A program made the translations under genes and the position numbers. The notes beneath the pieces were generated by a model. The model had not been told where the DNA came from and ran no database searches. It saw only the letters and a program-made list of their open reading frames with translations. Positions 5,174-7,819 of a stretch of DNA of 64,000 bases are shown piece after piece. The DNA comes from Escherichia phage vB_EcoM_112: sequence record NC_024125.2; one strand, given 5' to 3'. The stretch's first letter is position 1; each line of letters opens with the position of its first letter.

Positions 5174-5204
5174 CAAAAAGCCCCAACCTTTTGGTCGGGG
5201 CTAA
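5174..5204 (-). terminator. GC hairpin with U-tract on minus strand; left copy of a 31-bp direct repeat
   Basis: aaaaagccccaaccttttggtcggggctaag; reads GCCCCGACC-AAAA-GGTTGGGGC-TTTTT on minus strand, directly after stop of 5210..5683. Confidence 0.65.
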
Positions 5205-5209
5205 GAATG

Positions 5210-5683
5210 TTATTTGATTTGTTTAGCAGACCAAATGCGATCTTTAATAATTTTTTGGATGTCTTCAACATACTCAAGAGAGTGAGCATGTGGGTTATCT
5301 TTGAAACTATAAGCACGAGCTAACTTTTGACCTTCAGTTTTGATTACTAAAAGCTCTTTAAGGATAGCTTCATATTTGGAGATAATTCCTTTAACAATAT
5401 TTTTTTCTTGTGTAGCTTTAGGATCTGCTTTAGGAGCAGGTTTACCTGAAGCCTTTGCAAAAGCAGCGCCAGTAGCAACTAAACTTTTCCAGGCCATACT
5501 AACAGCATTCCCCGTAAATCCTTCTGCTTTCATGTCGCGAGCAAATTGGAATCGCGATTCGTCAGAAGCATCTTTATAAGAATATTTACCCGCTGCAATG
5601 GCTGCTTTTGCGACAGCTTGAATTTCGGTGCTAGATGCTTCATTTAACACCGCTTCATTTAAAAATTGAGTATATGATTTCAT
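5210..5683 (-). CDS. CTS-bearing internal-protein-like protein (157 aa)
   Basis: ATG at 5683 preceded by AGGAAATAAG; N-terminus MKSYTQFLNEA resembles the capsid targeting sequence; the 231-aa track ORF 5210..5905 runs across promoter and terminator and is rejected. Confidence 0.7.
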   Translation of the reverse strand: MKSYTQFLNEAVLNEASSTEIQAVAKAAIAAGKYSYKDASDESRFQFARDMKAEGFTGNAVSMAWKSLVATGAAFAKASGKPAPKADPKATQEKNIVKGIISKYEAILKELLVIKTEGQKLARAYSFKDNPHAHSLEYVEDIQKIIKDRIWSAKQIK

Positions 5684-5721: not shown

Positions 5722-5729
5722 TATTTATA
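5722..5729 (-). promoter_or_regulatory. T4 late-promoter motif TATAAATA (minus strand)
   Basis: plus-strand tatttata about 40 nt upstream of the ATG at 5683. Confidence 0.6.
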
Positions 5730-5731
5730 CT

Positions 5732-5762
5732 AAAAAGCCCCAACCTTTCGGTCGGGGCTAAG
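5732..5762 (-). terminator. GC hairpin with U-tract; right copy of the 31-bp direct repeat
   Basis: aaaaagccccaacctttcggtcggggctaag; 30/31 identical to 5174..5204, single difference in the loop. Confidence 0.65.
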
Positions 5763-6074
5763 CCTTGCGGCAACCTTGTCGGGGTTCCACCTGCTAAGGC
5801 AAGTGTTTGTACGAAACGCCGGGATTCGAACCCGGTTATCAAGCAGTTGACGCTACTCAATATTTTAAAAGGCCATATCTCGACCATATCCGAACGTTCC
5901 GTCAAAAACGCTACTCGGCTTACGGCAAAGATATTTCCTCGAATCGATAATTCGGTGCGCCGTTTCTGCTGTGATGTAAGGGGATATTAACAAATCGTAA
6001 AGATTTATTAAGACCAGTCCTTACTCAGGGAACATCAGTCCGACGACTTACCGGTAGCGACCCGGTTTCTTGTC
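5763..6074 (-). ncRNA. candidate stable small RNAs (T4 rnaC/rnaD-like region)
   Basis: 312 bp with no ORF between tRNA-Arg and a terminator; minus strand has tRNA-like T-arm CCGGG-TTCGAAT-CCCGG near 5815..5835; T4 encodes two stable RNAs next to tRNA-Arg. Confidence 0.4.
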
Positions 6075-6151
<77 letters not shown>

Positions 6152-6155
6152 TAAT

Positions 6156-6821
6156 TTAAAATTTCATTTTTCGACCTTTAAACCATCCTTCTGGAATTGG
6201 GTCAGTTTTCTTAATACGTTTAGAAACTTTTTCATCTAATGAATGAATCCACATCATACCGAATTGGGAATTCTTTTCACCTTTCTGGTGATTATTTTTG
6301 GCGTGAGATTCTTTCATTTTATTAATAGTTTCAGGAGTATGGGTCTTACCCAAGAAAGATTTAGTATTTAAAAATTTCTCTCTATACTTAGGATTATCCC
6401 AAAGCTGTTTAAACCTTTCTGAACCCATTTTACGATATTTTTCTTTAAGGTCTGGGTCGTTCTCAAATCTGGTTTTAAAAGCGGCAGCTCCTTTTAAGGA
6501 AGCTTCTTTCTTTTTATCCAAATATTCTTTAGTGTTTAAATGGTCCCAACCACCTTCACCACCTAATTTCAAATTATAAACATCAGGGCGCTTTAAAAAC
6601 TCTTCAGTCACAATATTCTTTTCTAACTCAAACATAGAGGTTTTATCGTCAAAGAACTCTAATATTTCTTTAGAAAAATTTTCTATACCATACTTATCTT
6701 GGGCTCTTTTTAATAATTTACCAGAACCCATATATCCATCATCTAAATTTTCGGTAGAATGAGCGCCTATATAGATTTTATTATTAATTTTATTTGTTAT
6801 TTTATAAATGTAATGGAACAT
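6156..6821 (-). CDS. segB: GIY-YIG homing endonuclease
   Basis: 221 aa; N-terminal GIY-YIG motif (HYIYKITNKINNKIYIGAH); lies inside the tRNA cluster as T4 segB does. Confidence 0.85.
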   Translation of the reverse strand: MFHYIYKITNKINNKIYIGAHSTENLDDGYMGSGKLLKRAQDKYGIENFSKEILEFFDDKTSMFELEKNIVTEEFLKRPDVYNLKLGGEGGWDHLNTKEYLDKKKEASLKGAAAFKTRFENDPDLKEKYRKMGSERFKQLWDNPKYREKFLNTKSFLGKTHTPETINKMKESHAKNNHQKGEKNSQFGMMWIHSLDEKVSKRIKKTDPIPEGWFKGRKMKF

Positions 6822-6862: not shown

Positions 6863-6934
6863 TGGCCCTGGGTGGAATTGAACCACCATCTGGCGATTAT
6901 GAGTCGCTTGCTTGAACCTTCCAGCTACAGGGCC
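6863..6934 (-). tRNA. tRNA-Ile (anticodon CAU)
   Basis: Acceptor GGCCCTG/CAGGGCC, anticodon loop CTCATAA, T-arm GGTGG-TTCAATT-CCACC; no encoded CCA. Confidence 0.7.
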
Positions 6935-7531: not shown

Positions 7532-7819
7532 TTACCATTTATGATGATACATACTTACGATGCATTCAAGACCCAAAGAATTCTTGAAAATATCATATTC
7601 AAGAGGACCTTTTTCTGTTTCAATAAAGAAATCAAAATTTACTGTATTAAATTTACGGTCTTCCTTTACTAATTTAACTTGAGAAGATGAACGGTCAATG
7701 TAAACCTTTTCAACTTCAAAACATGTTAAAATGCCATAATCATCAATCAAGGCTTTAGCTGCTTCTTGATCATATTTATATCCATTTTCAACGGATGATA
7801 CTTTTGCATAAAGAATCAT
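7532..7819 (-). CDS. hypothetical protein
   Basis: 95 aa ORF between tRNA cluster and internal-protein-like locus. Confidence 0.55.
   Translation of the reverse strand: MILYAKVSSVENGYKYDQEAAKALIDDYGILTCFEVEKVYIDRSSSQVKLVKEDRKFNTVNFDFFIETEKGPLEYDIFKNSLGLECIVSMYHHKW

Follow-up and report, generated by a model that had tools for sequence, protein, structure and literature searches.

The window analyzed here, 64,000 nucleotides of Escherichia phage vB_EcoM_112 (NC_024125.2), comes from a Tequatrovirus, i.e. a T4-like phage, and its minus strand carries the T4 tRNA cluster (Gln, Leu, Gly, Pro, Ser, Thr and a tRNA with a CAU anticodon). This cluster is followed by the homing endonuclease gene segB (6156-6821) and then by tRNA-Arg(UCU) (6075-6151; called by ARAGORN and by the Rfam tRNA model at 71.2 bits), both on the minus strand. 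Downstream of tRNA-Arg(UCU), and in the same transcription unit, lies an interval at 5763-6074 with a G+C content of 0.44-0.45, compared with about 0.30-0.34 in the flanking genes. Read 5' to 3' on the minus strand, this interval contains rnaD, the homolog of T4 species 2 RNA (about 120 nt, at about 5954-6073); a 6-nt spacer, GAAUUA (5948-5953, placed by alignment to the T4 annotation); rnaC, the homolog of T4 species 1 RNA (138 nt, 5810-5947); and a 47-nt trailer (5763-5809). The start of rnaD at about 6073 and the end of tRNA-Arg at 6075 make the two directly adjacent. The unit ends in an intrinsic terminator identified by a terminator scan (5731-5762, minus strand), which consists of AGCCCCGACC-GAAA-GGUUGGGGCU and a U-run, with its stem at 5759-5736.

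An earlier note, made from the sequence alone, had described this segment as structured and as lying inside a transcription unit, and both descriptions held. The tRNA-Arg(UCU) gene lies upstream and the terminator stem downstream on the minus strand, and each part of the segment folds better than shuffled sequence: rnaC has an MFE of -49.3 kcal/mol (z = -3.8, with 0 of 200 shuffles as good), rnaD an MFE of -35.9 (z = -2.8, with 2 of 200 shuffles as good), and the trailer together with the terminator a z of -4.1.

The rnaD and rnaC RNAs of T4 are small stable RNAs known since the 1970s, and the species 1 RNA was reportedly sequenced by Paddock and Abelson in 1975. The T4 genome (NC_000866) annotates rnaC ("species 1 RNA", T4s001) and rnaD ("species 2 RNA", T4s002) immediately 3' of tRNA-Arg, as does that of RB33, and the window interval can be aligned with T4 over its full length, through rnaD and rnaC to the terminator that follows them. 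Against T4, rnaC is identical at 135/139 positions (97.4% to a T4 record by blastn), rnaD at 106/120 (88%), and the trailer and terminator together at 75/79. We also built covariance models for rnaC (R1) and rnaD (R2). Model R1 scored 159.2 bits at 5810-5947, the sole copy in the window, and model R2 scored 142.8 bits at 5954-6071. Given the end-to-end alignment, the annotation of T4 and RB33, and these model scores, the interval almost certainly holds the orthologs of the two T4 stable RNAs, as the earlier note had suspected from the position beside tRNA-Arg. Both are already-known genes, annotated in T4 and RB phages; they are expected in any T4-like phage, and their presence here is routine. 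They are also among the oldest known RNAs without an assigned function. That their function is undefined even in T4, as the earlier note stated, agrees with two published accounts, one of which describes the biological roles of both T4 RNAs as unknown (PMC3014915), while the other classes rnaC and rnaD as late in T4, with Northern blot validation and RNA-seq showing late accumulation (PMC9697503).

A query of 461 bases around the interval matched 773 phage records, nearly all of them T4-like phages, with Escherichia, Shigella, Yersinia, Salmonella and relatives as the named hosts of the T4-like matches. The best match was Shigella phage SfPhi01 (98.1%). Sequences resembling rnaC were found in 747 phage records, with identity reaching at least 95% in 682, and rnaD, which is more variable than rnaC, in 733. 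A metagenome scan added T4-like contigs only. A pattern scan of bacterial and archaeal genomes produced 21 matches, none of which was confirmed by model R1, and we consider these to be coincidental hits in genomes rich in GC. When the entire interval was searched by blastn against 5,426 complete E. coli genomes, no match was returned at E <= 1, indicating that there is no host homolog and no long antisense target, with short seeds still possible. The Rfam covariance-model search suggested in the earlier note found no family for either RNA: only true tRNAs scored above threshold, and scanning the interval at the gathering threshold and at E <= 10 gave nothing beyond noise. Without such a family, automatic pipelines mislabel both RNAs as hypothetical proteins or tRNA-OTHER, or annotate nothing at all.

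From folding and covariation, together with homology to T4 and model R1, we modeled rnaC as a tRNA-shaped RNA without an anticodon arm, in which an acceptor-like stem of 7-8 bp would be stacked on a canonical T-arm. The predicted path leads from the terminal stem through a 3-bp helix (AGG/CCU) into a long bulged arm and then along a single-stranded U/A-rich strand to a 10-bp hairpin (loop CGUCAA), two A's and the T-arm. The terminal, acceptor-like stem, which is supported by covariation, pairs the 5' strand UCGAUUCG (5940-5947) with CGUUUCGU (5811-5818), and the annotated 3' end of rnaC is the A at 5810. The 5' end annotated in T4 lies 1 nt upstream of the start of a canonical 7-bp acceptor; the stem would have 7 or 8 bp. 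The long arm, identified by folding and alignment, spans 5870-5939 and has about 26 bp with bulges. The 10-bp extra, or variable-arm-like, hairpin occupies 5837-5862 and the T-arm, CCGGG-UUCGAAU-CCCGG, occupies 5819-5835. Conserved single-stranded stretches in rnaC are AAAAAU and GAGGA. The T-arm quoted in the earlier note is real, with CCGGG (5819-5823), ATTCGAA (5824-5830) and CCCGG (5831-5835) on the plus strand, and is part of a tRNA-like fold that extends over the whole 138-nt rnaC, not of a hidden tRNA gene.

The same MFE architecture was recovered in six of seven lineages, each folded independently. In an alignment of 16 sequences, the paired fraction of cells is 94.3%, and compensatory changes occur at 14 pairs, compared with 0-2 in slid controls. 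Pair 4-137 of the terminal stem covaries, being A-U in nine of the 16 sequences and G-C in the other seven; two pairs of the T-arm covary (CG/UA and GC/UA); and six of the ten pairs in the extra hairpin have compensatory changes. The terminal stem is a perfect 7-bp helix in the Tegunavirus type, with tandem U.U mismatches in the other 14 of the 16 sequences. Besides these U.U mismatches and the offset of the T4 5' end, two further features count against the fold. In Tequatroviruses, ACGGAACG can form an alternative 8-bp pairing with CGUUUCGU, and in the Kanagawavirus type the T-loop is replaced by UGCAUGC, so that the T-loop motif is gone. Relative to the terminal stem, rnaC ends at the same points in T4 and in the window, and in both it is placed after rnaD and before the trailer and terminator. 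The T4 and window sequences differ at four places (a 1-nt deletion in an A-run, two changes from U-A to U.G in the extra arm and one from U.G to C-G in the long arm), all of which are compatible with the rnaC fold.

The two large arms of rnaC carry complementary loops, UUGACG at the apex of the long arm (5900-5905) and CGUCAA in the extra arm (5847-5852). From GenBank phages, IMG/VR and metagenomes we assembled a set of 33-35 distinct rnaC sequences. Each arm was folded on its own to find the two loops, with the loop sequences unused, and the matches were counted in Python. In 33 of 33 distinct rnaC sequences the long-arm apex and the loop of the extra arm were exact reverse complements, with a match of 0.97 in register versus at most 0.44 out of register. 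Three haplotypes were found: UUGACG/CGUCAA; a Tegunavirus-type variant, UUGAUG/CAUCAA; and UUGGCG/CGCCAA, which six sequences of the Klebsiella-phage type carry. These amount to two independent double substitutions, each reachable via a G.U intermediate. In the Karamvirus and Klebsiella-phage types, the long arm has an unrelated sequence of equal length (61-62 nt), and in Karamvirus fGh-Ecl01, Klebsiella phage KLB31 and other Klebsiella phages the complementary hexamer is central in this unrelated arm. That hexamer position and arm length are kept despite the unrelated arm sequence suggests a defined three-dimensional architecture. We conclude that rnaC is very probably a four-way junction with loop-loop pairing. 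The covariation would fit an intramolecular or an intermolecular loop-loop contact alike, and in ROOL RNA a kissing loop predicted to be tertiary turned out to be quaternary (PMC12286853).

Several features make rnaC resemble a tRNA: its acceptor-like stem sits on a T-stem of 5 bp capped by the loop UUCGAAU, its long extra arm immediately precedes the T-arm on the 5' side, where class II tRNAs carry theirs, and its gene occupies a slot for a tRNA gene. Unlike a tRNA, it has no D-arm and no anticodon arm but a 61-62-nt arm instead, and mostly has tandem U.U mismatches. No complete cloverleaf was found in the interval with RF00005 or clan CL00001, the best match being tRNA-Sec at 16.8 bits. The tRNA-like domain of tmRNA, the 3' tRNA-like structures of plant viruses and bacterial YrlA also invite comparison with rnaC, which was made here through the Rfam scan alone. 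To our knowledge, the structural model of the two RNAs and their wider distribution have not appeared in the literature that could be searched.

rnaD, which we delimited by alignment to T4 and RB33 and by model R2, has a separate conserved fold, supported by covariation. It begins with a hairpin at the 5' end, is closed on the 3' side by a long-range helix, and contains an invariant internal-loop core and a freely exchangeable central hairpin. Hairpin 1 (ACCGG-GUCGCUA-CCGGU, 6050-6066, minus strand) has 5 bp and a 7-nt loop in the RNAalifold prediction, and compensatory changes are seen in five of its five pairs once divergent genera are included. The long-range helix, also from RNAalifold, joins GUCGUCG (6041-6047) to the 3' strand CGGCGCAC (5955-5962), with 95.5% of cells paired; its core pairs are invariant, and one pair is CG in place of GC in the copies from Kanagawavirus (L004) and the Erwinia type (L017). 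A third element is a short helix with a covarying U-A/A-U pair (RNAalifold, 17 sequences). The central hairpin (5973-6027) is hypervariable and mosaic, with at least three unrelated alleles among relatives; the base of its helix covaries (AU/GC, UA/GC, AU/UA) and its interior sequences are unrelated. Altogether 14 of 23 pairs in rnaD have compensatory changes, a count made on an alignment (A6) that was fitted to the model structure and is biased towards that structure. GACUGAU and GAAAC are conserved as single-stranded stretches. Compared with T4 rnaD, the 5' 45 nt and the 3' 25 nt form a near-identical core, T4 has an extra G, and the central hairpin differs, the window allele being that of SfPhi01, to whose rnaD the window rnaD is 100% identical. 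Separately, hairpin 1 appears as a terminator-like site in a scan of the plus strand. Candidate motifs picked out by eye were discarded: kink-turn and sarcin-ricin motifs did not fit the internal loop of rnaD, and complementarity of rnaD GAAACG with rnaC CGUUUC, or of the rnaD loop GUCGCUA with rnaC UAGCG, was not conserved across genera.

Model R2 also gave weaker but specific matches (22-28 bits, E about 1e-3 to 2e-5), lying in stretches of tRNA clusters that carry no annotation. These divergent rnaD copies, from phages of the Klebsiella, Enterobacter and Erwinia types, were found in Kanagawavirus, where rnaD directly follows tRNA-His, in Klebsiella phages and in Erwinia-type contigs; they retain the core AAGUCGUC...UCCCUG...CACAG...GGCGC, and their helices covary. 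Both RNAs were found in tRNA clusters of Escherichia, Klebsiella, Enterobacter, Erwinia and Yersinia phages, in arrangements that vary. Dhakavirus loci have rnaD and then the trailer and terminator, without rnaC; some other genera have a tRNA gene separating rnaD from rnaC; and in RB69-type phages a 351-nt gene lies between tRNA-Arg and rnaD. The two RNAs are separable and occur independently.

The trailer (5763-5809, minus strand), which in Dhakavirus lies directly 3' of rnaD, contains a predicted 7-bp hairpin, CACUUGC-CUUA-GCAGGUG (5788-5805). Its 47 nt are nearly invariant in Tequatrovirus, Mosigvirus and Dhakavirus, with so little variation that no covariation evidence arises. This conserved sequence may be a processing site.

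Several of the more distant rnaC copies sit among tRNA genes. Erwinia phage COW86c and Karamvirus fGh-Ecl01 have rnaC between tRNA-Trp and tRNA-Gly, Kanagawavirus Entb_45 and Klebsiella phage kv_tblp5 have it 3' of a tRNA-Met, and Tegunavirus TG1 has it 5' of tRNA-Trp. The start of rnaC is within a few nucleotides of the 3' end of a tRNA gene in the Erwinia, Karamvirus, Kanagawavirus and kv_tblp5 loci, with a CDS taking that place in Tegunavirus, and the gap from rnaC to the following tRNA gene, where one is present in this set, is 2-20 nt. The genomic tail after the terminal stem reads U-ACA-A in the window, U-UCA-A in Tegunavirus and U-CCA-A in the Klebsiella types. The tRNA-slot setting, the CCA-like tail and the acceptor/T-arm module fit maturation by the tRNA machinery. 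T4 species 1 RNA was also reported in 1976 to be cut by RNase III in vitro, which would fit the long double-stranded arm of rnaC.

We lean towards an RNase P-type processing of rnaC, within the following scheme. rnaD and rnaC would be co-transcribed with the minus-strand tRNA cluster and then cut from the precursor. The acceptor/T-arm module would make rnaC a substrate of the host tRNA-maturation machinery, with the RNase P cut forming its 5' end. The U-[A/U/C]CA tail of rnaC would be trimmed and possibly CCA-repaired, like T4 tRNAs without an encoded CCA. The same RNase P cut would leave rnaD with a short 3' trailer, to be trimmed back to the terminal helix of rnaD, and the compact folds of both RNAs would make them stable after release. 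CCA repair has a precedent among the T4 tRNAs, as tRNA-Ser has UAA instead of CCA (PMC11143913).

rnaC is far better conserved than the adjacent tRNA-Arg, for which the window allele is identical to that of T4 at 43 of 77 positions (56%) and to that of RB33 at 76 of 77, and this difference argues against a mere spacer. T4 deletions of the whole tRNA region grow on laboratory strains, a point against the following proposal. We tentatively suggest that rnaC and rnaD could be accessory decoys of tRNA-like form, or sponges, that bind a factor of the host or the phage which recognizes the shape of the tRNA acceptor/T-arm. A decoy function with an effect only in some hosts is our best guess, held with low confidence. 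The literature on the function of rnaC and rnaD yielded only statements of unknown role and a single hint at function: when the T4-like phage BW1 was adapted to ECOR34, a semi-permissive strain, the same rnaD SNP arose convergently in all three lines, although it could have pre-existed in the ancestral stock (PMC12685909).

A more specific version of the decoy proposal draws on the loop-loop contact and is, in our view, unlikely. Here rnaC would be a self-locking or self-assembling tRNA mimic, forming a rigid ring-like tRNA-shaped body, or head-to-tail dimers or larger rings, whose acceptor/T-arm ends would trap a host factor. The trapped factor would be one that acts on tRNA 3' ends or acceptor stems, e.g. 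a tRNA-directed defense toxin or a maturation enzyme. If this were true, rnaC and, separately, rnaD would be RNA-based host-range or counter-defense factors conserved across several T4-like genera. The phage and prophage RNAs ROOL and GOLLD are likewise phage-encoded and found beside tRNA genes, and GOLLD levels increase late during lytic growth, but they are 500-800+ nt long and form 8- to 14-mer cages with conserved kissing loops (PMC12286853). At 139 and 120 nt, rnaC and rnaD are much shorter and show no sequence similarity to them. No match to the ROOL or GOLLD Rfam models was found in the interval at the gathering threshold or at E <= 10. With the fold model, the 6-bp loop-loop contact and its two compensatory variants, the strict arm length, the conserved rnaD core with its swappable hairpin, the spread of both RNAs over phages of several host genera and the reported host-adaptive rnaD mutation in hand, function becomes more directly testable.

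As the main alternative, rnaC and rnaD could be cis-acting parts of the tRNA operon transcript, that is, structured spacers or 3' caps that are stable only as compact by-products. They would then guide processing by RNase P, E or III, or shield upstream tRNAs from 3' exonucleases. In keeping with such a role, the two RNAs are always inside or at the 3' end of tRNA clusters and on the same strand, several genera have rnaD immediately after the 3' end of a tRNA, conserved trailer and terminator sequences lie downstream, and rnaC and rnaD occur independently of each other. In several genera, however, rnaC is in the middle of a cluster and not at its 3' end, and what is conserved includes loop sequences, junction strands and arm length besides the helices. 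Moreover, across 682 of the 747 phage records rnaC has stayed at 95-99% identity, while the adjacent tRNA-Arg has been exchanged for a 56%-identical allele, and a point mutation in rnaD was selected in the host-adaptation experiment. We regard a purely cis-acting role as doubtful.

It is improbable that the two RNAs are base-pairing regulatory small RNAs acting on host or phage mRNAs, or sponges of host small RNAs in the manner of 3'ETS-leuZ, a spacer of an E. coli tRNA operon that sponges small RNAs. Each RNA does have conserved single-stranded stretches, but most of each molecule is locked in helices, and rnaC has a tRNA-type architecture, not one of seed plus terminator. The absence of matches at E <= 1 in the 5,426 complete E. 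coli genomes excludes long complementarity, though not short seeds. One study refers to rnaC and rnaD as small regulatory RNAs (PMC9697503), and another reports that no trans-acting small RNA had been functionally characterized in T4 (PMC3014915).

Part of rnaC has also been called as a tRNA. ARAGORN reports a 94-nt tRNA-Lys(ttt) at 5809-5902, the Rfam tRNA-Sec model, aligned to 5811-5902, gives an acceptor of 8 bp and a T-arm, and some GenBank records place a 'tRNA-OTHER' over this tRNA-like segment, which could suggest a genuine or decayed tRNA-Lys gene with anticodon UUU and a long variable arm. We consider such a gene highly improbable. The ACGGAACG/CGUUUCGU pairing is perfect in Tequatroviruses, but its 5' strand, ACGGAACG, comes from inside the long arm, the sequence of which is replaced in the Karamvirus and Klebsiella types. 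The acceptor proposed by ARAGORN and tRNA-Sec shows zero covariation; 7 of 16 sequences have an A.C mismatch in it, the Tegunavirus type breaks it, and the substitutions that break the tRNA-Lys acceptor are all compensated in the full-length rnaC fold. The tRNA-Sec score of 16.8 bits compares with a gathering score of 47, RF00005 has no match in 5763-6074 at the gathering score or at E <= 10, and mature T4 rnaC is annotated as 139 nt, not 94. Thus, with no covariation of its own and with compensation in the full-length fold, the tRNA call is an artifact of an alternative, lineage-specific pairing.

Finally, it is scarcely credible that the interval encodes one or more short proteins, even with listed ORFs of 24-47 aa on both strands, at least one stop-free frame in 20 of 29 rnaC sequences, and a 'hypothetical protein' placed over rnaD and rnaC by automatic annotation in many GenBank records, because no frame is open in all homologs and T4 rnaC has none, homologs differ by 1-nt indels (with rnaD lengths of 121, 122, 125, 126 and 128), substitutions track base-pair covariation and not codon position, and all ORFs in the interval start with TTG and have no obvious ribosome-binding site by reading. 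Nor was a conserved short reading frame with a non-ATG start found across the homologs, T4 and eight other rnaC sequences having stops in all six frames. The statement in the earlier note that no ORF of any size lies here was nevertheless wrong as worded, as four ORFs of 24-47 aa fall inside the interval, at 5776-5850, 5807-5950 and 5847-5990 on the plus strand and at 5865-5993 on the minus strand. A 29-aa ORF (6070-6159, plus strand) overlaps only the last bases of the interval, and the upstream end of a 231-aa TTG ORF is present as well.

The interval downstream of tRNA-Arg is an insertion hotspot. RB69, HY03, ECO4, and Sfk20 carry a hypothetical-protein gene of 345–351 nt between tRNA-Arg and rnaD, and among the compared loci of related phages this gene occupies the gap at 352–702 in L008, L034, and L035, and at 361–705 in L038. 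Several other phages (RB51, RB68, OMNI12, and fPS-90) have about 360–530 bp of inserted sequence that interrupts their match to the window.

The tRNA-Arg(UCU) of the window (6075–6151, minus strand) is identical to T4 tRNA-Arg at only 43 of 77 positions, but to RB33 tRNA-Arg at 76 of 77, with segB and rnaD, on either side of it, conserved. The entire tRNA-Arg allele has been swapped in place.

At the other end of the unit, the window contains two near-identical terminator hairpins on the minus strand, AGCCCCGACCAAAAGGTTGGGGCT and AGCCCCGACCGAAAGGTTGGGGCT, at 5179–5202 and 5736–5759. These copies flank a 157-aa gene (PHROG 2280, 5213–5683), to which a late-promoter motif, TATAAATA, at 5722–5729 belongs. 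The gene is absent from T4, whose sequence past the terminator agrees with the second copy in the window. The PHROG 2280 gene looks like an inserted cassette, with the terminator duplicated in the process.

The same motif, TATAAATA, also occurs at 7773–7780 on the minus strand, approximately 340 nt upstream of tRNA-Gln (7434), the first tRNA gene. In T4, the tRNA cluster, rnaC, and rnaD are expressed late (PMC9697503), and the motif at 7773–7780 is consistent with that report. Within the cluster, ARAGORN called a tRNA-Met(CAT) at 6863–6934 (minus strand), the same position as the T4 gene annotated as tRNA-Ile.

Rfam has no family for either rnaC or rnaD. ARAGORN called a 94-nt tRNA-Lys(ttt) within rnaC (5809–5902, minus strand), some GenBank records (H53, H155) annotate a 'tRNA-OTHER' at the rnaC position, and many others lay a 'hypothetical protein' over rnaD or rnaC; all three labels are annotation artefacts. 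A consensus scan also reported a 'terminator-like' site on the plus strand at 6050–6066, which is merely the opposite-strand reading of rnaD hairpin 1.

Finally, divergent, unannotated rnaD-like RNAs, scoring 22–28 bits with the rnaD covariance model, are found in tRNA-cluster gaps of Kanagawavirus, Klebsiella, and Erwinia-type phages. Among the compared loci they lie at 335–460 in L004 (Kanagawavirus), 122–213 in L036, 154–245 in L037, 6807–6905 in L009, and 791–888 in L017 (Erwinia-type), and in some records short 'hypothetical protein' calls overlap them.
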